A stretch of DNA of 32,000 nucleotides from Polynucleobacter sp. es-EL-1 (GCF_018687975.1 NZ_CP061310.1:1493584-1525583); one strand, 5' to 3'. Shown: positions 6,857-30,351, counted from the stretch's first letter. Numbers and translations are program-made. Notes: a model not told the origin generated them from the sequence alone.

Positions 6857-7007
6857 GAAAAATGTGTAGTAATTGCCTACACACTTTTGAGCATACCCAG
6901 CGTTACTTAAAGTAACGCTCAAATGACCAAACCAATCATTTTCTTCACAAGCCTATCTTTTTGTGACGTTTAGGTCCTGTTTAGGTTCTCTGGTTATGAG
7001 AGCAGAT
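6857..7007 (+). repeat. ~150-bp direct repeat, left copy (L), containing palindrome 1
   Basis: Aligns by eye along its whole length with 14742-14892. The best block is ctttttgtgacgtttaggtc..gtttaggttctctggttatgagagcagat. Confidence 0.8.
6899..6919. repeat. island palindrome copy 1 (agcgttacttaaagtaacgct)
   Basis: Perfect 21-nt palindrome read directly from the sequence. Confidence 0.95.
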
Positions 7008-7193
7008 ATCCAAAGAAAACCACTAGGATTTCAAGAGCTTACGTCGCCTGTTTATCGGTGTGTGAGTATTTGTGTGACTAATTTAAACAGAGCAGAAGAA
7101 ACACTGACTCACTCTTTGGTTTTCTAAACCACAGGATTTTTGGAGCAACCATCTAACACCTCGTTGCTCCAAAGTACTTTTTGAGTGGTTAAT

Positions 7194-7216
7194 AAGCGTT
7201 ACTTAAAGTAACGCTT
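7194..7216. repeat. island palindrome copy 2 (aagcgttacttaaagtaacgctt)
   Basis: Perfect 23-nt palindrome with the same 21-nt core. It lies 126 bp downstream of the end of the metal-efflux operon. Confidence 0.95.
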
Positions 7217-7310
7217 GATTAGCCAATGACCGCCATCGACCCAAAGGCGGACCTTGGCGGAACATGGCTCCACCAATCAACGATAGCAATCCGATTACTT
7301 CACAACAACC

Positions 7311-7329
7311 CAATCTATAGGCTAGATTG
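7311..7329 (-). terminator. possible terminator hairpin after the 122-aa gene
   Basis: caatcta-taggc-tagattg is a 7-bp stem lying 13 nt beyond the stop at 7342. The U-tract is weak. Confidence 0.3.
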
Positions 7330-7341
7330 AGGTGATTTAAC

Positions 7342-7710
7342 TTATAAATTAAATCTTGCTGTAATCACTTTCGCCTTTATCTTGATAACTGCTATGGCCT
7401 TAGCACCCTTGGGAATAGCGAAATTACCTTTCACTTCCAATTTCCCTTCATTAGGCAGTAGCTCATAATCTTTTTTATCTGATCCAATTAAGACTGTCAG
7501 CTTTGCGGTCCCACCATCTATAGGTATCGGTTTACCGTGGTCCGTCAAATACAGCGACAAGCTATCAGGCTTTGCAACCAATTCAATATCAATGTCCTTA
7601 GCCTCTACTATGACACCGCCATGCATTGGTTTTAATTCATGGCCAGCTCCAGCTTGAACTAAGCCAGTAAAACTGATGAGCAAGGTTGCAATCAACATCA
7701 TTGATTTCAT
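7342..7710 (-). CDS. periplasmic protein of the metal-efflux operon (function unknown, putative metal-binding)
   Basis: 122-aa ORF. The signal peptide ends LVQA and the mature N-terminus is GAGHELKPMHGG. The body aligns by eye with the 189-aa protein encoded at 11896-12465 (LSLYLTD / ITLYLDR, GxAK). Confidence 0.6.
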   Translation of the reverse strand: MKSMMLIATLLISFTGLVQAGAGHELKPMHGGVIVEAKDIDIELVAKPDSLSLYLTDHGKPIPIDGGTAKLTVLIGSDKKDYELLPNEGKLEVKGNFAIPKGAKAIAVIKIKAKVITARFNL

Positions 7711-7725
7711 ATAAACCCCTTTAAA

Positions 7726-10700
7726 TTAAAATACTTCGTTAGTTTTCATATTGCTCAAGGCTATTTCAGATGCTTTTTTCCCGTAAAGCCAAAACATGGC
7801 TGGCGTTAAAAAAGTATCCAATAAGGTAGAACTGAGGAGCCCGGAGAAAATAACAACTGCTACTGGATGCAATATCTCTGTACCAGGACGCTCTGCTTCA
7901 AATAACAATGGCGCCAAGGCAAAAGCTGTGACCAAAGCTGTCATTAGTACAGGACTTAAGCGCTCAATTGATCCGCGAATAATCATTGCCAGGCTAAACG
8001 ATTCACCCTCTGACTGCATCAAATTCAGGTAATGACTAATTTTTAAGATTCCGTTACGCACAGATATTCCTGCTAGCGTGATAAATCCTATTAATGCAGC
8101 AATCGAGAGTGGCTGGCCTGAAATCCATAAACCAATCACTGCTCCGACCATAGCCAATGGAATGTTAGACATAATCATTAAAGATAAGCGTATGGACTTA
8201 TAGCGATTATTTAAAACCGCAAACATCAAAAGAAATGATCCAATTGATAGCAAACCAATTACTTTAGATGCCTCTTCTTGCGCTTTAAATTGGCCATCTA
8301 GAGTAATGAAGTACCCCTCTGGAAGAGTCTGATTAGAGATCACAGTTCTAATATCAGCCACGATATCTGACAAGGCACGCTTGGAGGCATTAGCCGATAA
8401 GACAATTCTTCGCTTACCGCCGTCTCTGCTAATTTGATTTGGGCCATCCCCATCCTCAATGCTGGCAATTTTTGAGAGTGGGATTTTTCCATTTGGCGTA
8501 TCAATCAAGATATCAGCAAGACCTTCTAAATTTCTTGCTGAGTCTGGTAGCTTGATCACTAAGGCAAACCGTCGATTACCCTCAATAATTTGCGAGAGTC
8601 TCTCCCCCTCAACCATGCCCTGCAAGGTGGCCATAATCTGAGAAGTTGAAACTCCGTATTGCGCTGCTTTATCGTAATCAATTCGCACCTTAATTTGTGG
8701 TGCTAAAACCTGCTTTTCTATTTCTAAATCAACTAAGCCTTCAATGCCCGCTAATTTGGATCTCAAAAGATCGGCTTGGCTACGCAGCACGTCTAAATCA
8801 TCTCCAAAAATCTTAATCGCAATTTGTGACCGAACTCCTGAAAGCATGTGATCTATTCGATGTGAGATTGGCTGACCGATTGCAATTGCAGCGGGTAAGT
8901 TAACTAATCTTGACCTAATATCTGCCTGTATCTCAGACATGGAGCGATCTAAATCTCCCGCAGGCTTTAAACCAACATCTAACTCACTCACATGTACACC
9001 TTCTGCATGCTCATCCAATTCTGCGCGGCCACTCCTGCGTCCAACATAAGTCACTTCAGGAACCTGCCTGACTAACTTTTCTGCTTGGCTGGCTAGGCCT
9101 GCCGATTCAGAGAGTGAGACACCAGGATTTAAACGCAGCCCGATCAGTAAAGTCCCTTCGTTAAAGGGCGGTAAAAATGAGCTCGCCATAAAGGGAACAC
9201 TGGCAGCAGCTACGATGACGGATGCAAAAGCATACATCAGAGGCTTTTTAGGCGCCGCTAACAACCTTGATAACTGAAACTCATAATGGCTTTTAAGCCA
9301 AGTGACAATCTTTGTATCGTGATCCCTCAGGGACTGCATTGAGGGCAGCAGATAAAAGCAGAGTACTGGTGTGATAGTCACTGAAACTAAAAGTGATGCA
9401 AGAGTAGAGACTATAAATGCAATACCCAAAGGCACAAATAGTCGCCCCTCTATACCTGGTAATGCAAATAATGGGATGAATACCAAAACGATGATGGCTG
9501 TAGCGTAGATAATGCCGGTCCTTACCTCAAGCGAGGCGGCTCTCACAATCGCTAGTGGACTTAATTGATCTAAAGATGCTTTATCTAGATTTGCTCTAAG
9601 GCGACGAATCACGTTTTCCACATCAACTACTGCATCATCAACTAGGCCGCCGATTGCAATGGCTAAGCCTCCTAAGGTCATCGTATTAATTGATAAACCA
9701 AAGTACTTAAAAACCAGGGCAGTTAAGAGAATTGAAACTGGAATTGCTGTTAATGAGATGAGGACCGGGCGAATTGTTCCTAAAAAGAAATACAGCACTA
9801 CAGCAACAAAGATTGATGCGCCGATGAGCTTACCCTCTAAAGTGCTAATGGATGCATCAATAAAGCTCGCCTGCCTAAATGTTACTTTTGGAGCTTCCAT
9901 GCCAGTTGGCAAGCCCTGCTTTAATTCTGCAATAGCTGATTCAATCTTTTTTGTTAGCACTACCGTATCTGCTGAAGGTTGTTTTTGTACACCTAGAATG
10001 ACTGCTGGCCCACCTTCATAACCGGCATCACCTCGCTTAACTGCTGGTGCAAAAGTAATATCTGCAACTTGTCTTAAAAGTATTGTTTGTCCATTGCGGT
10101 TCGATACGGCAATGTTCTTTAAATCTTCAAGGCTAGAAGTTCGCCCTATATGACGAATGAGATACTCACGATTATTAGACTCAAGAAATCCACCAGACGT
10201 ATTTGCAGAGTAGCCCCGCAATGCATCTTCAATCTGCAATATGCTAAGGCCTAGCTCCGCCATACGACGAGTATTAGGTTGTACTTGAAACTGCCTAACT
10301 TGCCCGCCAATAGGAATGACTTGCGCTACCCCGGGGATAGCCATCAATCTGGGTCGCAAAACCCAATCAGCATACTCGCGAACCTGCATGGATGAAATCT
10401 TAGATTCATCAATCGGAATGGCAATTTGCATGATCTCACCCATGATTGAACTAATGGGCCCCATGCGCGAAACAATGCCATCCGGAATTGCTCCGTCCAT
10501 AGATGAGAGTCTTTCTGAAACCATTTGCCTAGCGCGATAGATGTCTACAGACCAGTCAAAAGTAACGTATATGAAAGAAAGGCCAGCACTAGATACTGAG
10601 CGAATGGCTTCTACTCCCGGTAAACCATTCATAGCGGTTTCGAGTGGGAATGTAATGAGTTGTTCAACTTCTTCTGAAGCCATTCCGCCAGCCTCAGTCA

Positions 10701-10848
10701 TGATGGTGACAGTAGGCTTATTCAGATCGGGAAAGACATCCACAGGCATCTTGCTTAAGGTGTAAGCACCATAGACCATAGATATAGCACTGAGCAAAAT
10801 CACTATCATGCGATTTTTTAAGCTGAAATCTAATAACCAAGTAAACAT
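7726..10848 (-). CDS. heavy-metal efflux RND transporter, CzcA/CusA family
   Basis: 1040-aa ORF with a 12-TM RND layout, two large periplasmic loops and the TM4 motif GGLAIAIGGLVDDAVVDVENV, typical of HME-RND pumps. It is flanked by adaptor and outer-membrane factor genes. Confidence 0.9.
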   Translation of the reverse strand: MFTWLLDFSLKNRMIVILLSAISMVYGAYTLSKMPVDVFPDLNKPTVTIMTEAGGMASEEVEQLITFPLETAMNGLPGVEAIRSVSSAGLSFIYVTFDWSVDIYRARQMVSERLSSMDGAIPDGIVSRMGPISSIMGEIMQIAIPIDESKISSMQVREYADWVLRPRLMAIPGVAQVIPIGGQVRQFQVQPNTRRMAELGLSILQIEDALRGYSANTSGGFLESNNREYLIRHIGRTSSLEDLKNIAVSNRNGQTILLRQVADITFAPAVKRGDAGYEGGPAVILGVQKQPSADTVVLTKKIESAIAELKQGLPTGMEAPKVTFRQASFIDASISTLEGKLIGASIFVAVVLYFFLGTIRPVLISLTAIPVSILLTALVFKYFGLSINTMTLGGLAIAIGGLVDDAVVDVENVIRRLRANLDKASLDQLSPLAIVRAASLEVRTGIIYATAIIVLVFIPLFALPGIEGRLFVPLGIAFIVSTLASLLVSVTITPVLCFYLLPSMQSLRDHDTKIVTWLKSHYEFQLSRLLAAPKKPLMYAFASVIVAAASVPFMASSFLPPFNEGTLLIGLRLNPGVSLSESAGLASQAEKLVRQVPEVTYVGRRSGRAELDEHAEGVHVSELDVGLKPAGDLDRSMSEIQADIRSRLVNLPAAIAIGQPISHRIDHMLSGVRSQIAIKIFGDDLDVLRSQADLLRSKLAGIEGLVDLEIEKQVLAPQIKVRIDYDKAAQYGVSTSQIMATLQGMVEGERLSQIIEGNRRFALVIKLPDSARNLEGLADILIDTPNGKIPLSKIASIEDGDGPNQISRDGGKRRIVLSANASKRALSDIVADIRTVISNQTLPEGYFITLDGQFKAQEEASKVIGLLSIGSFLLMFAVLNNRYKSIRLSLMIMSNIPLAMVGAVIGLWISGQPLSIAALIGFITLAGISVRNGILKISHYLNLMQSEGESFSLAMIIRGSIERLSPVLMTALVTAFALAPLLFEAERPGTEILHPVAVVIFSGLLSSTLLDTFLTPAMFWLYGKKASEIALSNMKTNEVF

Positions 10849-10858
10849 GTCTTAGTCC

Positions 10859-11899
10859 TTAACGAATTTGATTGATGAGGGATGCCCCATCAGTAATGAC
10901 TCGTTCACCATCTTTAATACCGCTAGTGATAACAATGTTCTGACCATCTAAAGGCTCATATATAACTGTTCTGGGCTCAAATATTTCTGGGGACTTTTTA
11001 ATCCAGACAATTGTTTGGTTCGAGCTGCTTTTGACTAATGATTTTGAGGGCGCCTTTACTCCAGTGACCTTGCTATCGGTATTTACAAATACTCGAATGG
11101 GCTGACCTATGGGTAAAAATTGGAGATCATCCGATTTAGCAGAAAAAGTAAGAGGCAAGGCTTGCTCTCTGAGGGTCTGTCCACCACCGAGATACTTGAG
11201 CTCAATCACTTTGCCATTAACATCCACTTTGCCATCAGCAATGTTCTTACTCAGATTTGAGTCGTAGGCAAGCGCTTCTATTAATAGCTTGGATGGATTA
11301 ACAACCTCAAAGATTAGATCTCTTGCTTGTACTACTTGGCCAGACACGACACCCGTAGTAGAAATAATTCCGCTGACTGGGGCTCTTAATTCTTCATTAG
11401 CAACCGCGGCTTCTGCCTCTTCAATAGTCTTACGTGGAACCGTATCGCTAAGATCTCGCAAACGCTTTAGTCGACTTTCCGCAAGTGATCTTGATTTTCC
11501 TGGGCCAGCCTCTGGCGTTACATACGCCAAGACATCGCCTTTACTAATCTTCTGTCCGGGCAATGGAAAACCAGCTGGTCCCGGCGTAATACGGCCAGCA
11601 ACAATCGCTTGCACCTTACCGCCAAAGTTAGGATCCATGATGACTTTTCCAGCTAAATCATAGGTTTTGGCATATTCGCCGAACTGGCCAGGAGTTGTCA
11701 TCACGTGTAACTGGCGTTGCGCAGGCTTGGGAATAAAAAGACTGCCGTCCGACTGTCTTTTCGGAGCGTCGCCTTGAACTTGGGATACTTCCGACTCACC
11801 ATGACCCGGCCCAGCATGAACCTTAAAAGCAAATAGCGCCACAGATAAACCAATAAGGATAAAGGGGCGAAATACAAAATCTCTATGTTTGCGATTCAT
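10859..11899 (-). CDS. efflux RND periplasmic adaptor subunit (CzcB/CusB-like)
   Basis: I chose the start at the ATG at 11899-11897 (MNRKHRDFVF...). It forms an ATGA overlap with the stop of the upstream gene. It has a TM/signal segment followed by HAGPGHGESEV, and lipoyl motifs (ISKGDVLAYV ... LRAPVSGIIS). Confidence 0.8.
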   Translation of the reverse strand: MNRKHRDFVFRPFILIGLSVALFAFKVHAGPGHGESEVSQVQGDAPKRQSDGSLFIPKPAQRQLHVMTTPGQFGEYAKTYDLAGKVIMDPNFGGKVQAIVAGRITPGPAGFPLPGQKISKGDVLAYVTPEAGPGKSRSLAESRLKRLRDLSDTVPRKTIEEAEAAVANEELRAPVSGIISTTGVVSGQVVQARDLIFEVVNPSKLLIEALAYDSNLSKNIADGKVDVNGKVIELKYLGGGQTLREQALPLTFSAKSDDLQFLPIGQPIRVFVNTDSKVTGVKAPSKSLVKSSSNQTIVWIKKSPEIFEPRTVIYEPLDGQNIVITSGIKDGERVITDGASLINQIR

Positions 11900-12465
11900 A
11901 CCCGCTCCTTGATTTGTTTGATTAATTTTTTTGCATGCGTCATCAACACCTCTTTCTTGCGATAAGAAAAATAGGCAATTGCCATCAAGAGGCTGAAATA
12001 AAGCAAGATTTTTATTGCTGATTTCCAAGAGATCAATGAGGAGTGCTCAAAGGAACTTAGATCGATAGTGGCTGCTAGTATGTCGGTAACATCATCATTA
12101 ATCGTGATGGTGATCGCAGTAGGCTGATCCTTAATTTTATTTTTTAGGCGAAAGAGATACTCTCCATCACCATGAGGCTCTGAACTAATTTTAGAGCCCT
12201 CAAGCTCAATTTCAACCTTAGCTCCTTTGACCAATTCATTGGAGGAGTAGCGATCTAGGTAGAGCGTGATTTCCTTACCATTGATCACTCCTACCGCCTC
12301 ATAGAGATCAGATTCAGCATAAAAGCGAGGTGATGTTTGAGTTTGTGCAGTGGTGGGTTTTTCCTCCCCATGACCAGGGCCTGCATAAGCTGCCGATGCA
12401 ATTGTCAGAGATAGCGCAATTAATAGTTTTGACGCCAACTGACTATATTTGTTCAATAAATTCAT
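11896..12465 (-). CDS. membrane-anchored periplasmic protein of the metal-efflux operon (unknown function)
   Basis: I chose the start at MNLLNKYSQ (12465), just after the OMF stop at 12479. The signal peptide ends AAYA and the mature N-terminus is GPGHGEEKP. It has a C-terminal TM helix (ILLYFSLLMAIAYFSY). Its stop overlaps the adaptor start. Confidence 0.6.
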   Translation of the reverse strand: MNLLNKYSQLASKLLIALSLTIASAAYAGPGHGEEKPTTAQTQTSPRFYAESDLYEAVGVINGKEITLYLDRYSSNELVKGAKVEIELEGSKISSEPHGDGEYLFRLKNKIKDQPTAITITINDDVTDILAATIDLSSFEHSSLISWKSAIKILLYFSLLMAIAYFSYRKKEVLMTHAKKLIKQIKERV

Positions 12466-12478
12466 AGTTAAAGTGACC

Positions 12479-13762: not shown

Positions 13763-13832
13763 AAAAACTCCATTTGTTTGTTCAAAACAGAGTTAGCGAG
13801 AGAAGAAGAATTAGGTTAAGGCTCTCGCTAAC

Positions 13833-14168
13833 TTAGGCGAGAGCGAGCCAATTGGGTTTTTCAGGAGGGGGAGGAGAAATATTGACTAAAAACTCCACTC
13901 GAGCATCTTCATAATGAAAGATGGTAGTGGCAATTGAAATGGTAAAAGTGGAATGTAATGCTGGAGAATGCGCCAAATGACAGACCCCACAATCAGAATC
14001 GTAGCTTGCAGAATCGCTAGCTGAGGCAATACTGACTGGCTTCTCATGCTCGTGATGTGAAACATGAGAAGCTGCTGCCTGCTCTTCTTGGCAGTAAGCA
14101 GAAACCGTAGCATAGGAGGTTTGTATCGATAAAGCTAGCAGGGCCAGAATTATCAGGATTTTTCTCAT
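13833..14168 (-). CDS. small secreted His/Cys-rich protein (CzcI-like position; putative metal-binding or regulatory)
   Basis: 111-aa ORF with signal peptide MRKILIILALLALSIQTSYA, then SHVSHHEHEKP and CGVCHLAH. First gene of the efflux cluster. Confidence 0.45.
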   Translation of the reverse strand: MRKILIILALLALSIQTSYATVSAYCQEEQAAASHVSHHEHEKPVSIASASDSASYDSDCGVCHLAHSPALHSTFTISIATTIFHYEDARVEFLVNISPPPPEKPNWLALA

Positions 14169-14304
14169 GTTTCTATTACAGCATATTTCTTAGTATTTTG
14201 CATTATGAGCTTTCTCAAAACGCTTAATGGATTAGCTTTGGATAAAGATGTTACCAACAGCTCATACCAGTAAAACACCTACGCAGGACGATTTTAGTGT
14301 TTCT

Positions 14305-14324
14305 TGGCGGTCCGGGGCGGAATC
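14305..14324 (-). repeat. tRNA-Phe 3'-terminal fragment, copy C (degenerate)
   Basis: tggcggtccggggcggaatc matches copies A and B at 18 of 20 positions and is preceded by the same ttct. Confidence 0.55.
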
Positions 14325-14391
14325 AAAAAAGGGCTTAGGATATCTGACTCTGCTTTAGACTATTCCACAACTATTTCTTCCTAAGGCTCAA

Positions 14392-14742: not shown

Positions 14743-14892
14743 AAAATGTGCAGTAATTGCCTACACACTTTCTAGCATCCCCAACCGTTACTTAAAGTAA
14801 CGCCTACAACTCCAAACCCAACCTTTAGTCTCAAAAGCTAGCTTTTTGTGACGTTTAGGTCTAGTTTAGGTTCTCTGGTTATGAGAGCAGAT
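14742..14892 (+). repeat. ~150-bp direct repeat, right copy (R), containing palindrome 3
   Basis: Aligns with 6857-7007 and starts at the last base of the DUF3147-like stop codon. Confidence 0.8.
14786..14802. repeat. island palindrome copy 3 (17-nt core cgttacttaaagtaacg)
   Basis: Same core as copies 1, 2, 5 and 6, but the outer two positions are mutated. Confidence 0.9.
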
Positions 14893-15176: not shown

Positions 15177-15231
15177 ATAGGGCAAGGATATAAGGAGCAG
15201 ACAACTTTGATAGCCTATGCCCCCCCCGAAA

Positions 15232-15258
15232 GCAACCGTTACTTTACGTAACGGTTGC
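15232..15258. repeat. palindrome variant copy 4 (gcaaccgttac-tttac-gtaacggttgc), possibly a bidirectional terminator
   Basis: 11-bp perfect stem that shares cgttac/gtaacg with the 21-nt palindrome. It lies between convergent ORFs and is preceded by a C8 run. Confidence 0.7.
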
Positions 15259-15586: not shown

Positions 15587-15598
15587 GATATTTCCTTT

Positions 15599-16399: not shown

Positions 16400-16459
16400 T
16401 TTTTGTTTCCTTATTTGGTTTTCTTATGCAGCGCCAATAGCGGCGCTGCTTTTTTACAA

Positions 16460-18206: not shown

Positions 18207-18207
18207 G

Positions 18208-18795
18208 CTAAATCAGCTCCACCGCATTACGCAGGATATCGGGACGAGTATCAATATAGCGCTGCGTGGTGGACATTTGACTGTGACCTGCCAACTGCAT
18301 CATGACCCTTACTGACACCCCCTTCTCACTGAGTCGTGTCAAAAAGCCACGGCGACCACTATGGCTAGTAGCGCCATTAAGCCCTGCTTGACGATATAAG
18401 CCGTTAATCACATGCGTTAAGGTGTTTGGTGTGAATCCCAAAGCCCTTTGTGTGGGGAACAATGGACGATTCATGTCTTTTGGTGGATGCGCTGCGATAT
18501 AGATGGCAAGTTCCTGTTGCATACGCTCTGATAACAGCACTACCCTACTTTTAGAGCCCTTGGTCTGATTTGCAGCTAAGTGAATCTCGCTTAACACCTG
18601 TTTATCCGCGTTTAAAACGTCGCTGTAGCGCACACTTGCTACTTCACCTATTCGCATACCCGCCCAGTGCGTTAACAGCAGTATTGCGCGATTACGCACT
18701 GCTGCTTTGGTGCTCGCTGCGTAGTCTAGTGCTCGCTGTAATTCTGCATCACTTAATGTTTTTGCTTGTGCCATGGTCTCTCCTTGTATTGCCAT
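18208..18795 (-). CDS. short tyrosine recombinase (catalytic domain only)
   Basis: 195-aa ORF carrying the R...K...HxxR...H...Y set: AGMRIGEV, TKGSKSRVV, HSGRRGF, LAGHSQMSTTQRYI. It has no N-terminal arm or core-binding domain. Confidence 0.8.
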   Translation of the reverse strand: MAIQGETMAQAKTLSDAELQRALDYAASTKAAVRNRAILLLTHWAGMRIGEVASVRYSDVLNADKQVLSEIHLAANQTKGSKSRVVLLSERMQQELAIYIAAHPPKDMNRPLFPTQRALGFTPNTLTHVINGLYRQAGLNGATSHSGRRGFLTRLSEKGVSVRVMMQLAGHSQMSTTQRYIDTRPDILRNAVELI

Positions 18796-20724: not shown

Positions 20725-20742
20725 CTGTGAGGTATAGCAAAA

Positions 20743-21108: not shown

Positions 21109-21137
21109 TCACTAAAAGTCAGCAGCTAAATATCAGT

Positions 21138-21488: not shown

Positions 21489-21522
21489 TTAATCATTTTC
21501 CACTCTCTTGGAAAGGTGCTAT

Positions 21523-22297: not shown

Positions 22298-23644
22298 TTA
22301 AACCATCCGCAGCTCTCGTGCTGCCCGCTTCCTGCTAGGATAGTTATCAGTAGCCTTGCCATCCGCCTCAATCAGCTTTCTAGTATTTACACCACGTAAT
22401 TGCTCAATAGCCTGTATTACCTGTAAGTGGCTATAGTGCCGCTCAATCATTAATACACTTGTACCCATTTGTTTTGCTAGCGTATGAATAGGTACCATAT
22501 CGTGAGTAAGTGCTAATGTGGCATAGGTATGGCGTAGGCTATAGAACACACGCTTTTGATTGGTCTTGGGATCTATTAGTAAGCCATGGTCTGATAAGAA
22601 GTTATCAAACATATGGTTTAAAACATCACTTAAATCTCTACCATCTTTAGCTCTAAAGATGTAGTCATCATTGGTGGGTTTAATCAGCCCAGCTAAAGGA
22701 TCTTTAATTGAGCTAGCTACCCCATAATTTCTAAGCGCAATACGCTCTAGCACCTTGACGCTAGGTAGTCGCCCAATAATCTGCCTTTGCCCTGTTTTAC
22801 CTTTTACTGTCATTTCACAACTTCTATTTAAGTTATGAATTTCAATAACTTCGCCTTCTTCATCCAATTGATCTGTCACGGTGCTAATGGGGTTCATCAT
22901 GAAGCGGATTTGCTTCCATTTCATATCAAGCAACTCAATGCCTGGCCTTGCTCCTGTATCTACCAGCATTTCCACATAATCTCTCAGGATCTCACGGCGC
23001 TCACGCACATCCCGAGTTCTACCTGATTCTATGTATGGACCTAGTAGTTTTAGTAAGGCTCTGAGTTCATGCAGCTCAAATGCTGGGCGACGCACACTCT
23101 CTTTAGTCTTGCCATCTAACTTGGGACGATTGCTCTCGGTTAAGTAACCCCGAACAATGGCTTCATCAAATACCCTGTTAAATGCAGCGTTTTGAGTCTT
23201 ACGATTGCTATTGGATAGCGCTAATCCATACTTGGCTTCACGGTCATCGTAGTACTGCTGCAGGGCGTCGTAGTCAATATTGGTTATGAGTCTTTGCCCA
23301 AGACTAGGTATGAAGTGCTCATTAATGATGCGGATGTAGTCTTTGTAGATTGACTTACCCAAGCCACCCTTCAAGTCTCGCTCCATGCGATCAATTGCCA
23401 GCATGGCGATATCTTTAAAGCGTTTGGTTACTACTGGAATACCGGAGCGTTTACGAATCTCTGCCTCCACTAATAGCTCTTTAGCCTTATTAACTGCCAA
23501 GTCAAGCTGGGTTTCTTTAGTAGTTGCTCGTATCCACTTGTTATCCACCTTATAGCGACATTGCCATACGGCGCTATGCTCGCGCTGATAGAGGGTTAGG
23601 TTACGGTGTATGAGTTGATGTGTACTTTCTTTTTTAATTGCCAT
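22298..23644 (-). CDS. tyrosine-type site-specific integrase (full length, 448 aa)
   Basis: Catalytic motifs LVDTGARPGIELLDMKW, YSLRHTYATLAL and GTSVLMIERHYSH. It has an N-terminal arm-type region (WQCRYKVDNKWIRATTKE). Confidence 0.85.
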   Translation of the reverse strand: MAIKKESTHQLIHRNLTLYQREHSAVWQCRYKVDNKWIRATTKETQLDLAVNKAKELLVEAEIRKRSGIPVVTKRFKDIAMLAIDRMERDLKGGLGKSIYKDYIRIINEHFIPSLGQRLITNIDYDALQQYYDDREAKYGLALSNSNRKTQNAAFNRVFDEAIVRGYLTESNRPKLDGKTKESVRRPAFELHELRALLKLLGPYIESGRTRDVRERREILRDYVEMLVDTGARPGIELLDMKWKQIRFMMNPISTVTDQLDEEGEVIEIHNLNRSCEMTVKGKTGQRQIIGRLPSVKVLERIALRNYGVASSIKDPLAGLIKPTNDDYIFRAKDGRDLSDVLNHMFDNFLSDHGLLIDPKTNQKRVFYSLRHTYATLALTHDMVPIHTLAKQMGTSVLMIERHYSHLQVIQAIEQLRGVNTRKLIEADGKATDNYPSRKRAARELRMV

Positions 23645-23756
23645 ACATATACTTTAGCTTCAGAGCCTAGGCTAGAGCAACCAAGTTGGCTGAAAAATAG
23701 AGGTCAATTTAGCCAAAAGAACTTGTGGCTAAGAGTGGAGTTTATTGGGGGGGATG

Positions 23757-23777
23757 AGCGTTACTTAAAGTAACGCT
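23757..23777. repeat. island palindrome copy 5 (agcgttacttaaagtaacgct)
   Basis: Perfect 21-nt palindrome 113 bp upstream of the integrase start, preceded by a G7 run. Confidence 0.95.
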
Positions 23778-23818
23778 TGGGATGTTGCAAAAAATCAAGA
23801 TTAATTCTATATTAAAAA

Positions 23819-24238
23819 ATGAGCTTACATCTCAACTACTTAAAACCTCCATCTAAAGCGCATCGAGATTATGCAAAAGCTCTTTATGATAGAAGGAATG
23901 AGGCAATTTATATCCCAAAGGTTAATGTTGAACTACCGAATTGGAAGCCCCAAATAAATAGATGTCACGACAACTGCGCCGAGTGGTATTTAAACAATCC
24001 AAATTGCGAAATAGTTCATGGATGGCTTTCTATAGATTTAACTGCTATCGGTTTTTACAGATTTATTGCCCATTCCGTAATTAAGAATTTAGATGGCTCA
24101 TTTATAGACATTACGCCATCCTTAATTCAAACCAACTATCCATTTCTTAAAGGCAGCCTTGATTCGGATCAGTATTTTGAAGCAACAGATGTTTTACATG
24201 AGCATTTTGGAGACTCAAATCTAGATCATTGGATCTAA
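23819..24238 (+). CDS. hypothetical protein (139 aa)
   Basis: ORF only. Its stop codon overlaps the hsdR stop (convergent 4-nt overlap). Confidence 0.45.
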   Translation: MSLHLNYLKPPSKAHRDYAKALYDRRNEAIYIPKVNVELPNWKPQINRCHDNCAEWYLNNPNCEIVHGWLSIDLTAIGFYRFIAHSVIKNLDGSFIDITPSLIQTNYPFLKGSLDSDQYFEATDVLHEHFGDSNLDHWI

Positions 24239-27200
24239 CCAAGGACTGCCCTTCCAGCAGCCTCAGGATAAGCCTCGTATATATGCTCAAACATCGCTGA
24301 ACATTTGTCTTGGTACAAATCTTTTGTATACGCCTCGGGCAAGCCATCATCTAAGGCATCTTGAATGGCAAGCTTTAACTGTGATCTAGCAGTCTCTTTT
24401 TGACGCCAGTTCAACACCAGCAAATTTTTCAATTTTGCAAGTAATTCACGAGAAACCTTCTTTACCTCTGCTTTCTCAGCATTCGTTAAATCAGGAGCAG
24501 GCCTTGTCAAAATATCAAAAATAACAAGCTCTTCCTCTGACATATTCTCGCGAACGTGTCTCTCTTCTTCAGCATTTAAAGTATTTGTAAAGTTTAGTAG
24601 CTCTGCAAATATTTCTTCAATAGTCCGACTACCAGTGTTGTAACTTTCAATGAGTTCTTCAAACTTCTCAGAAAAATCAGCCCTCGTTTTATTGGCTTGG
24701 ATAAGCTTTTCCAATTTAGAGTGAATGGCGGCCTTAAGAGACTCTAAGTCTGTATTTTTATGCTTTGACTCCTTAAACTTCTGGGCAAGTGCTTGAAAAT
24801 TAATTTTTGAGAGGTCTAATGCTGCTGGTCCTTCTTTACGAATTGCCAAGCCAGTAATTGATTCATCCAAAATATCACTGATACCACCCATTATCTTTGA
24901 GATGTCTGAAGGGTTTGGATTTAATCTGACACGAATTGCCTCAACTAAGGTGGATAGACATACAACGATATTAAAAAACTCTAGAGCAGCTGGATCAGGC
25001 TTAATCGCTTTGTATAGAGTATTAACAAGTCGCTCATGACCAAATAACTGTCTACGCAAGGACTCCGGAGAAATCAGACTATCAATTGCATCCTCAATAC
25101 TTTGCAACCTCTCAAAACTTCCATCTGCTAAAGAAATTATGCGCTCCAGATTGACCCCTTTTGTATTGCAAAAGTCAAAAGCCGCCTTAATGGCAATTTT
25201 CAGATCCCTTACTAATTGCTGCTTATCTTTAACTGGATTTGTGCCACCACCACCAACTCCATAAATCGCTAATGCTTTTTCCAAAGAAGCAAATACATTT
25301 GCGTAATCAACAATCATGCCGCTGTGCTTGTCTGGGAAAACCCGATTGGCGCGTGAGATGGTCTGCATCAGCGTGTGATTACGCATCGGTTTATCCAAAT
25401 AAACAGTGGAGCAACTTGGCGCATCAAAGCCTGTCAGCCACATCGCACAAACAAATACCAACCGAAGTGGATCTTTGGAATCCTTAAAGCGCTCATCTAG
25501 CGGAGGCTGAGAATCATTCATGCGTCTACGATGCGGCTCAATATCTAAGCCCAACTCATGCATTTTAGAAATTTCGTTCTGGCTTGGCGAAACAATGACT
25601 GCCATATCAGTTGTCTTTAAAACATCTAATCGCCTTCTCAACTCGGCCAATTGAATATCACGCTGCGCTTGCTTAGGTGTTGTTTCGCCTGCTTCAGCAG
25701 CATTCTGTAATAGTTTAATCACCTCTTCTACTTTTGTAGTCTCTTGCTCCCAGGACTTTTTAACTTTATTAAAGGTCTTTAGGGCGGTAGCCTTGTCAAT
25801 GGAAACAACCATTGCCTTTCCTAAAAAACCTCGACCTAAAAAATGGGAAACAATATCTCGAGCTACAACCTCTAATCGATCATCTCTTGTAATGATGTGA
25901 TATTGCCTAGAAAGTTCACGCTCTAGTCTTGATTCTTGCTCGGGATCTAGTTCAGCTTCTTCAATTAAGCGGTATAAATCTTCATTTAAATCTGGATTAT
26001 TCAGGTGCAACTCAGGGGTGCGATTTTCATAAAATAAAGGGACGGTAGCTCCGTCCTCAACGGACTGCTGAAAATCATATATAGAAACATAATCACCAAA
26101 AACTTCTTTTGTTCTCTCTTCTCCAGCGATCAGTGGTGTTCCTGTGAATGCCAGAAACATGGCATTAGGCAAGGCCGATCTCATATTCAGCGCTAGGGTG
26201 TCATATTGACTCCTGTGTGCCTCATCAGTCATAACAATAACGTCAGATCGATCACATAATAAATCTGGAGATTGAAATTTTTGAACTAGAGTAAAAACAT
26301 ATCTATGATTTCCTCGTAGCAACTCTCTTAACTCTGCGCCACTAGATGCATGACATTTATCGCCTTCGGCTTGAGTTACTGCACCTACAGCCTTAAAGGT
26401 TCCAGCAATTTGATTATCTAACTCTACTCGATCCGTGACAACAGCAAACGTCCAGTTACCCACAAGTTTACGCAACACCTTTTGAGCAAAGAAAACCATT
26501 GAGAAGCTCTTTCCGCTACCTTGGGTCTGCCAAAAGACACCGCCTCTACCGTGACCTAGTTCCCGAGCCTCAAGCATTGATGCAATTGCATTATTAACAC
26601 CAATGAATTGATGATTCTGCCCTAGTATTTTTACTAAACCCGCTTTATGTTCCGAGAATAAAGTAAAGTTTTCCACCAAATCCAAAAGTCGCCCTTTGTC
26701 ACAAACACCTCGGAGCATTACTTCAAGAGAAACTCTTCGTGGCTCATCTTCACGCTCAATACGCTTCCACTCAAACCATCGCTCCCAATCAGCAGTCAAA
26801 GATCCAACGCGACTATCGGATCCATTTGAGGCAATCATTAGAGCGTTGTACCAAAATAAACTAGGTACTTGATCTTTGTAGTGAGTTAAATTTTCATCAA
26901 AAGCATTCCTGGCTGGAACACCCGGTTTCTTTAACTCAATGACGACCCAAGGCAGCCCATTCACAAAACCGACTAGGTCAGGTCGGCATGTATACAGCGA
27001 ACCCGTCACACTAAACTGGCTTACAAGCAAGAAATCGTTACTCTCAGGGGTTTCCCAATCAATAACCTTAATTCTTATAGTCTTTTGACCGCCATTCTCA
27101 GTATCTGGAATTGAAACTGGAACACCTTCTTTTAAGAATTCATAAATTTCACGGTTTGCGGCAGCTAATCCCATTGTCGATCTATCTCTAACAATTTCAT

Positions 27201-27429
27201 CAATAGCCGAAGTTATTGATGAAGGTTGTATATCGGAATTATTAAGCTTTATCAAAGCTGATCGTAGTCGGGGAAGTAACACAACCTCACTTTTAGTGCT
27301 TCGGCCAAAACACCCATCGCCAGAAAATACCTCATCGGATGCATTTAGTATCTCCCATCCCAAGGAAGCAAATAAATTAATAGATGGCTGCTCAATTAAT
27401 TGATCTTCAGAATAGGCATGGGCATTCAT
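24235..27429 (-). CDS. hsdR: type I restriction endonuclease, R subunit
   Basis: 1064-aa ORF with Walker A QTQGSGKSFS, a DEAH box (MTDEAHRSQ), SF2 helicase motifs and a long helical C-terminus. It is downstream of hsdM-hsdS. Confidence 0.9.
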   Translation of the reverse strand: MNAHAYSEDQLIEQPSINLFASLGWEILNASDEVFSGDGCFGRSTKSEVVLLPRLRSALIKLNNSDIQPSSITSAIDEIVRDRSTMGLAAANREIYEFLKEGVPVSIPDTENGGQKTIRIKVIDWETPESNDFLLVSQFSVTGSLYTCRPDLVGFVNGLPWVVIELKKPGVPARNAFDENLTHYKDQVPSLFWYNALMIASNGSDSRVGSLTADWERWFEWKRIEREDEPRRVSLEVMLRGVCDKGRLLDLVENFTLFSEHKAGLVKILGQNHQFIGVNNAIASMLEARELGHGRGGVFWQTQGSGKSFSMVFFAQKVLRKLVGNWTFAVVTDRVELDNQIAGTFKAVGAVTQAEGDKCHASSGAELRELLRGNHRYVFTLVQKFQSPDLLCDRSDVIVMTDEAHRSQYDTLALNMRSALPNAMFLAFTGTPLIAGEERTKEVFGDYVSIYDFQQSVEDGATVPLFYENRTPELHLNNPDLNEDLYRLIEEAELDPEQESRLERELSRQYHIITRDDRLEVVARDIVSHFLGRGFLGKAMVVSIDKATALKTFNKVKKSWEQETTKVEEVIKLLQNAAEAGETTPKQAQRDIQLAELRRRLDVLKTTDMAVIVSPSQNEISKMHELGLDIEPHRRRMNDSQPPLDERFKDSKDPLRLVFVCAMWLTGFDAPSCSTVYLDKPMRNHTLMQTISRANRVFPDKHSGMIVDYANVFASLEKALAIYGVGGGGTNPVKDKQQLVRDLKIAIKAAFDFCNTKGVNLERIISLADGSFERLQSIEDAIDSLISPESLRRQLFGHERLVNTLYKAIKPDPAALEFFNIVVCLSTLVEAIRVRLNPNPSDISKIMGGISDILDESITGLAIRKEGPAALDLSKINFQALAQKFKESKHKNTDLESLKAAIHSKLEKLIQANKTRADFSEKFEELIESYNTGSRTIEEIFAELLNFTNTLNAEEERHVRENMSEEELVIFDILTRPAPDLTNAEKAEVKKVSRELLAKLKNLLVLNWRQKETARSQLKLAIQDALDDGLPEAYTKDLYQDKCSAMFEHIYEAYPEAAGRAVLG

Positions 27430-27439
27430 TAGGAAAAGC

Positions 27440-28651
27440 TCAATTATTAATTTGGATTGATAATAATTTCAGAAGTAAAAGATCACGCATCTTACTTAGC
27501 TTAGAAATTTGCAAAGAAAGTGTAAGAATCTGCCTTAGCATTGGCGCAGCAACCCTCTCAAACTCAACTATCAAACTTTCTGGGGGTGAAATAAACTGCA
27601 TAGCTTTAACAGCCGATCCAGCATGCAAAATAGTTGTTCCTTTTGCATGCGCCCTTATCGTATCTTGAATGCTATCAGAAAGAAGCAAGTTATAGGCAAA
27701 GCTCCACCCCAGCCTACTCTCATCTTTAATCACAAGTTTCCGTATACCAGTTGAATACGAGCCTGACAAACCGATCCTCACAAGCCCAACAGATCCATCT
27801 AGAGTTAAAGCAATATCATCTCGATTTAAATACTTATTCCTAGCTAAAGCATGTGGAATGAATAAATCGCTTTCACGTTTACTAAGATCTCCCACCCGGA
27901 GAAACTTGACCAATCCTTCCGCCCACTCATCCATGTAAGAGTCGGATCCTGGTTCAATGCCCCTCTCAAAATCAGCAAAATCTGATACTTTTCGTGCCTC
28001 CCATCCGGTAGGTAGTGATGTCTCCCCTAAAGGGGTTGCTTTATGTTCAACATATCCTGGATACCTAAAGTTTACAAACCACTCGCGATAAATTGACTGT
28101 GACATTTCTTCAAGGATTTTAATGCGACGGCCATTATTAGCGATAAGATTGTCGAAAGAAGAAAGAATTTCACCAATACGCTTTTGGTCCTCAATGGGCG
28201 GCGTATAGATGGGGAATGATAATAACTTATCTAAACTCAAGTTATCTTGTGTAGCCCCCCTTGATACTGATAGGAATTTGTTACGCATCAAGTCCAATGA
28301 GTACTTTACAAAATGCAAATCAGATTTATGAGGATCAGGAATAAATCCTACAATACTGTCAGGAAAATAAGCTGGAAACTTTAAGATTGCAGTCTTTGCT
28401 GTATTAGCCCCAGCGATAGTTATGCATAACGTATTAGCAGGCCACTGCTTGCTCTGCAATATTCCAAAATCGCTATAGGTATGCAAATATTCGGTGATGT
28501 AAGGATCTGCAGTCATAATATCTGCAGTCTGTATGAAGGGGTGAACACCGCCGTAAAGGCGCGAATCATTTCGCGGGCGATGCCTTGATTTTCCCCTGCC
28601 AACATAACCGAGTTCATCAAGCCGCATCGGCTTCCATGATTTATCCATCAT
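27440..28651 (-). CDS. hsdS: type I R-M specificity subunit
   Basis: 403-aa ORF with two target-recognition halves separated and followed by conserved helical spacers (QKRIGEILSSFDNLIANNGRRIKILEEM ... LSKMRDLLLLKLLS). Its start overlaps the hsdM stop. Confidence 0.85.
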   Translation of the reverse strand: MMDKSWKPMRLDELGYVGRGKSRHRPRNDSRLYGGVHPFIQTADIMTADPYITEYLHTYSDFGILQSKQWPANTLCITIAGANTAKTAILKFPAYFPDSIVGFIPDPHKSDLHFVKYSLDLMRNKFLSVSRGATQDNLSLDKLLSFPIYTPPIEDQKRIGEILSSFDNLIANNGRRIKILEEMSQSIYREWFVNFRYPGYVEHKATPLGETSLPTGWEARKVSDFADFERGIEPGSDSYMDEWAEGLVKFLRVGDLSKRESDLFIPHALARNKYLNRDDIALTLDGSVGLVRIGLSGSYSTGIRKLVIKDESRLGWSFAYNLLLSDSIQDTIRAHAKGTTILHAGSAVKAMQFISPPESLIVEFERVAAPMLRQILTLSLQISKLSKMRDLLLLKLLSIQINN

Positions 28652-30276
28652 TATTCGGCAGTTCTTAATATTTCGGAAATATTTAATGAGATATTTTTTT
28701 CTATTTCCCGCGCTTCCAGATTTAAAAATTCAAGTTCTTCACTTAGGAACCCAAGTTGATCGTTAAAATCTTTACTACTAGTCTCATCACCAAGAGGGGC
28801 TCCAACGTAAAGCCCTGGATTTAACGACCATCCTTGTGCTTCTATATCTGATAATGTAGCCACCTTACATAAACCCAAAATATCTTTATAGACAGGCTTG
28901 GCACCGAAAATTTCTTCAAGCTTAGCTTTAAGCTCTTCACCACCTTGCGCTAAGTCAACTTTATCGCCGCGATATAGCTTAACAATATTTGATATAAAGT
29001 CTATTTGATTTTTCGTCCAGTCCCTATGAGACCTATCAATTTTTCTGTAGATGTGACGAGCATCTATGAAGAGTACAGTATTAGCCCTTGGAGTTTGCGA
29101 TTTACCTTTATCCAAAAACCAAAGCATACATGGTAGTGTCACTGTGTAAAACATATTAGATCCGACAGATATCATCACATCAACAACCTTATCCTGAAGG
29201 AGTTTCTCCCTCAGTTCGCGTTCAGACGATCTTGCGTCAGCAGCAGAATTTCCCATAACAAATCCCGCTCGCCCCTTAGCATTGAGGGCTGAATAAAACA
29301 TCTGAATCCATATGTAGTTTGCGTTATCTGCTCGAGGTAACCCAAATGGAAATCTCCGACCACCTCCCACCATCTCTTTAAGTCGCTCCTTGTCCACTGA
29401 ATCAACATTAAAGGGTGGATTTGCAAGAACAAAATCGAACTGCCCAACCGCTCCGTGAGGGTCATCATAATAACTATTGGTATTGCCGCCGTGACGTATA
29501 TCACCCTCCAAGCCATGAATCGCCAAATTCAAACGACATAAGCGACCAGTGTCATCAGTTTTTTCAACGCCAAAAATTGACAGTTCTGCAGTTGGATTCT
29601 TTTGATGTTCCGAAACAAAACGTGCAGACTGAACGAACATTCCACCTGAGCCACATGCCGGATCAAGAATGCGTCCATGATATGGCTCAATAATTTCTGT
29701 TAGTAATTTCACAATGCTTGAGGGTGTATAAAATTCACCACCGCCCTGCCCTTCGGTCATAGCAAATTCACCAAGGAAGTACTCGTATACGCGTCCGAAT
29801 GCATCAAATTCCAAACTTACAGGTATTTCAGAAACTTTTTTTAGCAGCCCTTTAAGTAACGAGCTAGTAAAGAGGTTGTAAGTTTTTGGAAGCACTCCAG
29901 CCAAACGAGGGTTATGCTTTTCAATTTCACGCATTGCCTCATTAACTTTCGCACCAATATTCTCTGACTCAGGCAAAGTTAGCAAATAGTCATATCGAGC
30001 TTCTGGGCTCAGATAAAGAATTCCTTCGGCCAAATATGCAGTAGGGTCTTCGGATCGACTAACTCTCCTTGGAGAGGAGCCTTCTTTTCCTAACTGCTCA
30101 TGTTTAGAGGCGAATCTAGCCTCTGCAAATCTCAAAAATATCAATCCCAGTATTGGCCCAGCATACTCCTGGGTTTTCAATCCAGAATTTGCTCGGAAGT
30201 CATCCGCAGCATCCCATAGATGTTTCTCCAGGGTTGCATTATTCGCATCTTTTTCAGAAGCTGCAATCCAACGCAT
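28651..30276 (-). CDS. hsdM: type I R-M N6-adenine DNA methyltransferase subunit
   Basis: 541-aa ORF with SAM motif LDPACGSGGMF, catalytic NPPF (FVLANPPFNV) and an HsdM N-terminal helical domain. Confidence 0.9.
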   Translation of the reverse strand: MRWIAASEKDANNATLEKHLWDAADDFRANSGLKTQEYAGPILGLIFLRFAEARFASKHEQLGKEGSSPRRVSRSEDPTAYLAEGILYLSPEARYDYLLTLPESENIGAKVNEAMREIEKHNPRLAGVLPKTYNLFTSSLLKGLLKKVSEIPVSLEFDAFGRVYEYFLGEFAMTEGQGGGEFYTPSSIVKLLTEIIEPYHGRILDPACGSGGMFVQSARFVSEHQKNPTAELSIFGVEKTDDTGRLCRLNLAIHGLEGDIRHGGNTNSYYDDPHGAVGQFDFVLANPPFNVDSVDKERLKEMVGGGRRFPFGLPRADNANYIWIQMFYSALNAKGRAGFVMGNSAADARSSERELREKLLQDKVVDVMISVGSNMFYTVTLPCMLWFLDKGKSQTPRANTVLFIDARHIYRKIDRSHRDWTKNQIDFISNIVKLYRGDKVDLAQGGEELKAKLEEIFGAKPVYKDILGLCKVATLSDIEAQGWSLNPGLYVGAPLGDETSSKDFNDQLGFLSEELEFLNLEAREIEKNISLNISEILRTAE

Positions 30277-30330
30277 ATTTTTACTTTCTGATGTATTTAT
30301 TGTTTTCTACTAGTAGTGTAGCTTGCCCTA

Positions 30331-30351
30331 AGCGTTACTTAAAGTAACGCT
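30331..30351. repeat. island palindrome copy 6 (agcgttacttaaagtaacgct)
   Basis: Perfect 21-nt palindrome between the hsdM start and the tRNA-Ile terminator. Confidence 0.95.

Follow-up and report, generated by a model that had tools for sequence, protein, structure and literature searches.

A near-perfect palindrome at junctions of shuffled island DNA in Polynucleobacter, a candidate attachment site of an adjacent integrase clade

Introduction

Two described systems resemble the locus studied here: the tycheposons, tRNA-anchored island arrays of marine picocyanobacteria (Hackl et al., bioRxiv 10.1101/2020.12.28.424599), and the additive flexible genomic islands of 'Ca. Methylopumilus', which are marked by a recurring 20-bp tRNA-Lys repeat (PMC10872708). 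We analysed a stretch of 32,000 nucleotides from Polynucleobacter sp. es-EL-1 (GCF_018687975.1, NZ_CP061310.1:1493584-1525583), hereafter the window, meaning the whole stretch. It holds an island anchored by a tRNA-Ile(CAU) gene, in which a near-perfect 21-bp palindrome, AGCGTTACTTAAAGTAACGCT (PAL), recurs beside a 448-aa tyrosine integrase (Int448) and blocks of unrelated genes. PAL behaves as a junction of shuffled DNA, and our preferred reading, to which we give a probability of roughly 0.55, is that it is the core-type attachment (att) site of the Polynucleobacter lambda-type integrase clade that Int448 represents.

With tycheposons the locus shares an inward-facing tyrosine recombinase at one element end, a tRNA anchor (the tycheposon target list includes 'Met(cat)' tRNA), an order in which successive integrations would push older elements inward, with repeated attachment sequences separating elements and remnants, and adaptive cargo, here metal efflux and restriction-modification. 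In contrast to the tycheposon repeat, which is a partial tRNA, the joint is a free-standing palindrome of 21-25 bp outside the tRNA; PAL shares no sequence with tRNA-Ile, and tRNA-half repeats of the tycheposon kind occur instead in PAL-less relatives. Moreover, neither a replication or primase module nor any primase, helicase or polymerase family was detected in the island with Pfam, NCBIfam or PHROGs, and joints far outnumber integrase genes. Like those of 'Ca. Methylopumilus', these are islands of variable size in streamlined freshwater plankton, with blocks separated by a short recurring sequence beside a tRNA, but PAL is a palindrome tied to a specific integrase at a fixed distance and the Methylopumilus repeat is a tRNA 3' end.

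The arrangement also recalls integrons, with an integrase gene transcribed away from the array, a site ~120 bp upstream of it and then promoter-independent modules that each end in a palindromic site. It differs from them in its integrase, predicted to be lambda-type with an N-terminal arm-binding-like domain (the integron-integrase models of NCBIfam gave no match to Int448 and a weak partial match, far below cut-off, to a small recombinase of the island); in its site, a fixed near-perfect 21-mer paired save for the central base, whereas attC is variable and imperfect with extrahelical bases; and in its modules, which are multi-gene and in either orientation. Tandem accretion of integrative and conjugative elements (ICEs) with integrase-less cis-mobilizable elements (CIMEs) is said to have been described in Streptococcus by Pavlovic in 2004 and Bellanger in 2011, reportedly with one array that combines an integrase-bearing element with modules lacking an integrase, att cores lying between them, and with mobilization of neighbours possible; the present locus has no conjugation machinery, a palindromic core, many more modules and several loci per genome. 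As in the pdif modules of Acinetobacter plasmids and in Xer-exploiting elements, gene modules that encode no recombinase of their own lie between repeated copies of a short recombination sequence. PAL, however, lacks the dif layout (compared by eye with the dif consensus), has a dedicated integrase next to it, and is chromosomal and tRNA-anchored. Finally, Williams is said to have described in 2002 att cores in symmetric tRNA stem-loops, with the anticodon loop as a sublocation. PAL repeats this layout of stem, 7 nt and stem, and the nearest PAL-less relatives of Int448 appear to use the tRNA-Ile(CAU) anticodon stem-loop (L122; L numbers denote fetched loci), but PAL lies outside the tRNA and its arms are longer (~9 bp) and perfectly symmetric. 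The PAL system lacks the defining features of integrons, tycheposons (as to att type), dif sites, terminators and invertible switches; it is set apart by its joint, a free-standing 25-bp near-perfect palindrome that brackets the integrase gene too, and by an integrase whose nearest relatives appear to use the tRNA-Ile anticodon loop instead.

Polynucleobacter is among the most abundant freshwater bacterioplankton, and Hoetzinger and colleagues reportedly attributed its micro-diversification, in 2017, mainly to genomic islands acquired from a pool that is partly interspecific. If our reading is true, a joint of 21-25 bp tied to one integrase clade offers a concrete, testable mechanism for such gain, island modules can be mapped in genomes and metagenomes with PAL as a simple marker, and an integrase lineage has switched its target from a tRNA anticodon loop to a free-standing palindrome. 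PAL and the integrase also make a compact candidate recombinase/site pair. Were PAL a boundary element only, the finding would reduce to a landmark of flexible regions. We found no mention of AGCGTTACTTAAAGTAACGCT in the literature searched, although the main Polynucleobacter island paper may hold a prior description.

Results

A palindromic joint of shuffled DNA

PAL occurs exactly at 6899, 7195, 23757 and 30331 of the window, with TTAAAG on the plus strand each time, and in two variant copies, one with two mismatches (ACCGTTACTTAAAGTAACGCC, copy 3; 17-nt core from 14786) and one with three (15235-15255, copy 4). The mismatches of copy 4 are symmetrically compensated (ACCGTTAC..GTAACGGT), and it is enclosed by a 27-bp palindrome with 11-bp arms and the centre TTTAC. 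Our motif search thereby reproduced the four exact positions, the 17-nt core and the 11-bp-stem variant at 15232 of a preliminary description made from the sequence alone, as well as the extension of the copy at 7195 to 23 bp and the lack of copies in the flanking core (none in 1-6100 or 30400-32000). That description had called the palindrome perfect; its central base is in fact unpaired, leaving 10-bp arms, and the reverse complement differs at that base only. The proposed division into two 7-bp arms around a 7-bp overlap fits the usual geometry of tyrosine-recombinase cores. In 100 dinucleotide-preserving shuffles of the window PAL was never matched, compared with four exact and two variant copies in the real sequence. 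Folded as single-stranded DNA, the copies reach -5 to -12.6 kcal/mol, the last value being that of the copy 4 hairpin.

We scanned one genome per species with the exact 19-mer core as query, with counts per genome to be read as lower bounds, and found it in more than 120 stretches, nearly all from Polynucleobacter or freshwater Burkholderiales, with a few from Methylophilaceae metagenome-assembled genomes (MAGs). The flanks of PAL at 149 sites fell into 27 recurrent arm classes and 104 singleton arms. Recurrent arms comprise the tRNA-Ile terminator (two variants), the integrase 5' and 3' ends, the 5' end of a tRNA-Phe-like gene, the end of a conserved non-coding segment (unit B) and both halves of unit A, a ~150-bp direct repeat that encloses PAL copies 1 and 3 and is 80-90% identical between its copies. 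These arms join many unrelated partners, more than 100 different sequences, most clearly in the case of the tRNA-Ile-terminator and unit-B arms; both arms were unique at 18 of the 149 sites. Comparisons of the window with other genomes break at the outer edges of PAL: homology stops at 7215/7216 in at least 35 loci (copy 2), integrase-block homology stops at 23777-23780 in at least nine (copy 5) and homology begins at 30329-30331 in at least 25 (copy 6). In L001 it begins at 15228, 4 bp ahead of the 27-bp palindrome of copy 4.

An empty and an occupied version of one site differ exactly at PAL. In L053 and L057 a tRNA-Ile-type terminator, PAL and unit B follow one another without an insert; in L076 the same terminator and unit B flanks are separated by 3.46 kb between two PALs, holding a tRNA-Phe-like gene and a 921-aa open reading frame (ORF). 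One short sequence is hence found at both ends of the insert and once in the empty site, as expected of an att core. The alignment of empty sites that had been proposed for this island yielded this one pair ending at PAL, and in the window itself PAL5 and PAL6 bracket the module of type I restriction-modification (hsd) genes.

A fixed link to the integrase gene

Among homologues of Int448 with at least 60% identity, PAL lies 113-133 bp upstream of the start codon in all 12 in which it was found upstream; the 113-bp spacing claimed for the window is accurate, and in L130, whose integrase is 65% identical, PAL is at -132. In one further homologue of this class (L059) the upstream PAL is degenerate only and 801 bp away. 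Seven homologues have a second PAL 9-12 bp past the stop codon, so the integrase gene is itself a PAL-bracketed unit of ~1.5 kb. We also observed, in L017 (1800-3523) and L024, a compact 3.4-kb PAL-to-PAL element with an integrase gene and genes for a Fic-family protein and an RNase T-like exonuclease. Its two ends carry G-free arms that point inward, and no simpler autonomous unit of the system may exist.

Int448 carries the whole tyrosine-recombinase signature (Arg I, Lys, His/Arg II box and Tyr nucleophile) in the motifs TGARPGE (R233), GKTG (K283), SLRHTYAT (R371, H372) and ERHYSH (Y404), which are invariant in 23 homologues. PHROG 1 'integrase' matches it at E=3.5e-31; Pfam gave no match at E<=1e-3, PF00589 being below threshold for Int448 and present in homologues. 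An AlphaFold model (predicted local distance difference test score, pLDDT, 79) comprises a four-stranded sheet plus helix (8-66), a helical domain (76-164) and a catalytic domain. Its best PDB match was full-length lambda Int (1z1b_B, 440 aligned columns), followed among the top matches by Tn1549 Int, XerH on palindromic difH, and Cre, with template-modelling (TM) scores that are low (0.34-0.42), as expected for multi-domain models. On this model Int448 is best described as a lambda-type (heterobivalent) integrase with predicted arm-binding-like N-terminal, core-binding and catalytic domains. The family returned 2456 matches, mostly from freshwater metagenomes; no close relatives were found in phage records, and plasmid matches were 24-33% identical.

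In an alignment of 13 loci, the spacer between PAL and the integrase gene begins with a G-free stretch, which in relatives holds CTCCATAAA-like tandem repeats, and continues with a conserved TTAGCCAC..TTTTGGCTAAATTGAC block, a candidate for arm sites or a promoter. Two differing motifs are predicted as arm-type sites of Int448, the CTCCATAAA-like repeats and YTACACAY. The latter was found nine times in the window against 2.9 expected, with seven of the nine beside PAL1, PAL3 or the spacer on the 5' side of tRNA-Ile; k-mer enrichment for arm sites recovered units A and B only. We also noted a C8 tract (15220-15227) adjoining PAL copy 4 and a G7 tract (~23744-23750) adjoining copy 5, which could be slippage-prone sequence or a piece of the G-free arm.

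Distribution and constraint

The closest genome among the matches listed is that of Polynucleobacter sp. MWH-HuK1 (2.15 Mb), whose locus L038 is 95% identical to window positions 1-6036. It holds at least 11 PALs in four clusters (776-808, 1216-1232, 1440-1464 and 1952-1968 kb), three of which contain a full intron-bearing copy of tRNA-Ile, at least three copies in all. The czc (metal efflux) block of the window (7308-14213) recurs there, 96% identical, at ~800 kb beside an integrase gene and PAL, and the counterpart of the window's core flank lies far from it, at ~1216 kb; this placement is evidence for probable mobility of the module.

Mapping of the motif, proposed earlier as a check on a generic repeat, told in part against one: the copies found in HuK1 are clustered rather than spread in the manner of repetitive extragenic palindromes (REPs). 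We consider it highly improbable that PAL is a REP-like repeat or intrinsic terminator of the genus without a tie to islands, even though it forms a stable DNA hairpin (-8 to -9.5 kcal/mol), is intergenic, sometimes just past a stop codon, and is counted per genome as a lower bound. The hairpin has no T-run on either strand at the copies read and a terminator scan misses PAL, which led us to reject an intrinsic terminator; separate canonical terminators adjoin it; it is tightly linked to one integrase clade; and no gene of the REP-associated tyrosine transposase (RAYT) type was conspicuous among the commonest neighbour families, of which ten without a window member were checked against Pfam.

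Outside the 19-mer, an alignment of 149 exact sites, gathered by exact match and so biased as to conservation, shows T at +-11 in ~90%, Y at +-12 and R at +-13 in ~95%, and nothing beyond, which extends the full site to 25 bp (YRA-GCGTTACTTWAAGTAACGC-TYR); its central base is A, T or C, with C mostly beside integrase genes. As an unbiased sample we used metagenome contigs anchored on the unit A flanks alone (32 contigs, 26 distinct sequences). Here the 21 PAL columns are 97% identical, compared with 68% for the neighbouring 12-nt spacer and 64% for 40 columns further left, and the exact 21-mer is present in 15 of the 26. The 97% identity in a sample anchored on the flanks argues that PAL is under constraint, judged from sequence conservation; other unit A blocks are as conserved as PAL.

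That last result bears on a different view, in which PAL is a protein-binding or structural boundary (operator, insulator or end hairpin) at the ends of four conserved units. Ordinary homologous recombination would exchange the cargo, with the units acting as portable stretches of homology, and homology would stop at PAL for the sole reason that the units do. In related plankton, homologous recombination is known to maintain flexible islands of the replacement type (PMC10872708), excision products were found neither in IMG/VR nor in one integrase-only contig, and 71% of PAL sites adjoin one of the four units (137 of 193 sites with <=3 mismatches lie beside unit A, unit B, the integrase gene, or the terminator or 3' exon of tRNA-Ile). 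The remaining 56 of 193 sites lack all four, however, and the sites with unique arms on both sides (18/149) fit this view poorly. It leaves unexplained why four unrelated units share a 25-bp end and why the integrase gene has one PAL ahead of it and another 9-12 bp past its stop codon. The presence of PAL in 5' regions (before hsdM and in the interval between the integrase gene and ORF139) as well as 3' regions is unlike a single transcriptional role. We judge this view unlikely, if the strongest of the alternatives.

PAL was absent from 2.9 million viral contigs in IMG/VR. An origin from a phage, satellite or plasmid was rejected on this result, on the lack of integrase relatives in phage records and on the low identity (24-33%) of plasmid matches. 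The Methylophilaceae MAGs L018, L019 and L088 carry PAL together with the integrase or island genes, which suggests transfer between freshwater families, and such elements may therefore cross between Polynucleobacter and the group of 'Ca. Methylopumilus'. Matches in Berkelbacteria, Thermoflexus and Clostridia bins (L056, L100 and L030, respectively), from unrelated phyla, look like binning contamination or chance.

A second junction matching the tRNA-Ile anticodon loop

Units A and B share a second junction site, TTATGAGAGCAGA, at which comparisons break at 6994, 7006 and 14891. Read on the opposite strand, its TTATGAG gives CTCATAA, the anticodon loop of tRNA-Ile. At TTATGAG, unit B is joined to the tRNA-Ile 3' exon (L026, L107, L053, L090), to the intron (L053, L008, L011), to the spacer upstream of the tRNA (L112, L111, L063) or to the right half of unit A (this window, L072, L003 and others). 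That right half (A-right) begins like the tRNA-Ile terminator, clusters with it and has about the length of the terminator plus 3' half. From these resemblances the PAL1-PAL2 segment appears to be an old tRNA-Ile attachment-site remnant, consisting of a decayed terminator and 3' half, TTATGAGAGCAGA, and unit B as the distal arm. What had been taken for a 275-bp gene-free module is accordingly better described as a cargo-less remnant joined at TTATGAG to unit B. The weak homology reported to the right of copies 1 and 6 would stem from the derivation of A-right from the tRNA-Ile terminator and 3' half. Two other explanations of the segment were rejected. For a fimS-like switch that inverts the DNA between PAL1 and PAL2, the inverted arrangement was not observed: none of the 23 A-left arms in the 149 sites has a unit-B arm as its partner. 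For a structured small RNA, Rfam gave nothing at E up to 1, and the consensus fold of a 24-copy alignment of unit B reaches only -6 kcal/mol, without real covariation.

Homologues of Int448 with 57-59% identity in other taxa (L122-L124, L131 and L133) have no PAL. Their genes lie directly past an intron-less tRNA-Ile(CAU) next to rpoD, with direct repeats of (G)CTTACACAC or TACACACC ahead of the integrase gene. In L122, copies of the tRNA-Ile 3' half that start at the anticodon loop (CTCATAATC) border the 6-kb island as direct repeats, with CTGCTTACACACTTACTT at both ends; because of these repeats, the Int448 family appears ancestrally to have crossed over in the tRNA-Ile anticodon loop. In L122, L133 and L131 the anticodon-loop core precedes the integrase gene by ~100-150 bp, and in L123 by more, so that by position PAL would be the counterpart of that core in the first three. 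YTACACAC-type repeats are likely arm sites of these tRNA-type elements.

These findings invite the alternative that Int448 has kept its specificity for the tRNA-Ile anticodon loop (TTATGAG) and that PAL is the recombination site of another enzyme, either the small 195-aa recombinase of the island or a host Xer-type protein. Simple recombinases use symmetric sites (Cre/lox, Xer/dif, FimB/E), and PAL is short and symmetric; TTATGAG junctions are conserved and used in Polynucleobacter, and Int448 shares a conserved arm-binding domain with the tRNA-type clade. The small recombinase, the best candidate among alternative enzymes, gives Xer- and invertase-like matches in NCBIfam and travels with Int448 relatives across taxa (L122, L123 and L131), and its stop codon in L123 is 4 bp away from a 19-bp palindrome that differs from PAL. 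Yet this gene is present in only 6-7 of 120 PAL loci and never beside PAL, PAL-less relatives still carry it, and it is the integrase gene that PAL brackets at fixed distances. As to a host Xer-type enzyme, PAL is unlike the 11-6-11 dif consensus (XerD arm of the TTATGTTAAAT type; compared by eye). Action of another enzyme on PAL therefore seems to us decidedly improbable.

A candidate mechanism for island assembly

With PAL read as the attachment site of the Int448 clade, the core would consist of two inverted binding arms (YRAGCGTTA / TAACGCTYR) around an overlap of ~7 bp, CTTAAAG, in which only the central base is asymmetric. Strand exchange would take place inside PAL, with Int448 as the enzyme and modules moving as circles. 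The resident PAL just past the tRNA-Ile(CAU) terminator would be the chromosomal site; DNA circles with one PAL would integrate at this or any other PAL, each integration would leave its insert between two PALs, and repeated integrations would produce a tandem array of modules. The resident integrase would act in cis or in trans to capture or move modules that lack an integrase, such as ORF139-hsdRSM.

The hypothesis of an attachment core, already raised in the preliminary description, draws on the junction behaviour, the fixed integrase linkage, the breakpoints at PAL edges and the one empty/occupied pair. Several observations weigh against it. Homology does break at the outer edges of copies 2, 5 and 6, and 4 bp ahead of the palindrome of copy 4, but other borders in the window are not at PAL (6036/6037, 7308, 14213, 14391, 14891, ~21489 and ~22297). 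An 8.35-kb block (6037-14391) that the window has in addition to what HuK1 and L119 hold, located between a core terminator-like palindrome and a 116-aa gene, has neither end at PAL, and the czc block ends 92 bp (7308) and 570 bp (14213) away from the closest copy. The small-recombinase block ends at ~21489 and the integrase block starts at ~22297 without a PAL here, whereas other genomes have PAL at both. PAL1 and PAL3 are embedded in unit A and conserved on both flanks, contrary to the proposal that they are module borders, which they are not in present-day comparisons. The second junction TTATGAGAGCAGA, in the same units, is as conserved as PAL in the flank-anchored metagenome sample. The N-terminal domain of Int448 is nearly invariant between PAL-type and tRNA-type clades, and YTACACAC-type repeats are absent from the PAL-integrase spacer. 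The PALs around the ~296-bp unit have opposite central-base orientation in most genomes listed; the lone asymmetric base may not set direction, or those two PALs may not recombine together. Lastly, we found no circular or excised form, attP junction or mapped crossover: IMG/VR lacks PAL, and the one integrase-only contig is non-circular. This 1503-bp metagenome contig, which carries P0006, had been a candidate for a circular mini-element and was rejected for want of a terminal overlap and of PAL.

A wider reading, which we hold only tentatively and at odds well below even, joins these strands into an integron-like but mechanistically distinct cassette platform in Polynucleobacter. A lambda-type integrase clade would have given up the anticodon loop of tRNA-Ile(CAU) and adopted a free-standing palindrome of 25 bp that serves both self-integration and the capture, stacking and redistribution of integrase-less multi-gene modules. 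The integrase gene would itself be a PAL-bracketed cassette, and the system, common to freshwater genera, would occupy several loci per genome, each seeded by a usually intron-bearing copy of tRNA-Ile.

Island organization and further observations

The features of the window are collected in Table 1. The tRNA-Ile(CAU) gene is missed by ARAGORN because a group I intron interrupts it (Rfam RF00028 match at 30437-30658). Copy 6 lies directly past its terminator, as had been stated. A group I intron that forced the target switch was considered as an explanation and is weakened by L090 and L093, which have PAL with an intron-less tRNA-Ile. Of a clean ancestral empty site (A-left, PAL, terminator, tRNA-Ile) the nearest examples are L052 and L104, both with other DNA attached. 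An exact 40-nt copy of the tRNA-Ile 5' exon lies 231 bp further on (30876-30915), past a spacer with four YTACACAC motifs.

Table 1. Coordinates of features in the window (positions counted from its first letter)
Feature	Position	Strand	Remarks
Unit A copy 1	6859..7006	+	Hairpin GTGTAG-N7-CTACAC (A-left), PAL1, A-right ending in TTATGAGAGCAGA
PAL copy 1	6899..6919	+	Exact 21-mer, within unit A copy 1
TTATGAGAGCAGA, second junction site	6994..7006 and 14879..14891	+	Breakpoints given in the text
Unit B	7001..7194	+	Conserved ~200-bp non-coding arm; two GTGTGWG motifs; terminator-like hairpin facing PAL2
PAL copy 2	7194..7216	+	Exact, extended to 23 bp; outer end of unit B
Unit A copy 2	14743..14891	+	Direct repeat of unit A copy 1
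PAL copy 3	14784..14804	+	Two mismatches; within unit A copy 2, past the 116-aa gene
PAL copy 4	15232..15258		Left end of the block bearing the small recombinase
Small tyrosine recombinase	18208..18795	-	195 aa, catalytic domain only; Pfam PF00589 at 1.7e-26
Int448	22298..23644	-	448-aa tyrosine integrase, lambda-type by structure model; freshwater clade
PAL-integrase spacer	23645..23756	-	G-free stretch beside PAL with short repeats, then conserved block (13-locus alignment)
PAL copy 5	23757..23777	+	Exact, 113 bp upstream of the Int448 start codon
Integrase-less module PAL5-PAL6	23778..30330		ORF139; type I restriction-modification hsdR, hsdS, hsdM
PAL copy 6	30331..30351	+	Exact, directly past the tRNA-Ile terminator
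tRNA-Ile terminator hairpin and T-run	30353..30389	-	Hairpin 30360-30379, between the gene and PAL6; recurrent arm class
tRNA-Ile(CAU) gene	~30390..30682	-	Exon limits read from sequence; group I intron ~30429-30644 in the anticodon loop

The block between copies 5 and 6 holds ORF139 and hsdRSM, in agreement with the preliminary description; no close DNA homology to this module was found among the fetched loci, where L114 showed distant protein similarity only. The same description had labelled a stretch of the island an 'ICE-like core'. This segment (15278-21864) encodes the 195-aa recombinase, a DUF6641 protein and a DUF6876 protein, a gene set also found beside Int448 relatives elsewhere, and we dropped the label, as Pfam, NCBIfam and PHROGs detect no relaxase, type IV secretion system (T4SS), conjugation, replication or partition family in it. 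The position of PAL copy 3 relative to the 116-aa gene is the same in HuK1, L119 and L070.

A second palindrome, ATGTCGTTTTAAACGACAT, and its compensated variant, ATGTCCTTTTAAAGGACAG, occur at the left end of the 8.35-kb block (6018-6036 and 6064-6082). The 19-mer of this palindrome has three copies inside the related island of a distant taxon (L123), one of them 4 bp from the small-recombinase stop codon.

A weak tRNA-Phe(GAA)-like gene (6743-6815, minus strand; ARAGORN, 32.8 bits, acceptor-stem mismatches) has its 3' end repeated twice more, at 6159-6193 and 14293-14327. Its 5' end is 14-16 bp from PAL in L076 and L082, and the DNA to the right of PAL2 (7223-7260) looks like a decayed copy of its 5' part.

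To the left of the island, an intergenic zone (2808-2957) at which homology to several genomes breaks contains a palindrome (2844-2893) with 23-bp arms, 96% complementary, and a 4-nt centre. The position equivalent to 2957 in strain 15G-AUS-farblos (L086) has units A and B and a PAL next to it, so that the 'core' left of the island is itself modular. At the other end, a MazE-type antitoxin and PIN-domain toxin pair (30977-31652) lies between the tRNA-Ile region and rpoD.

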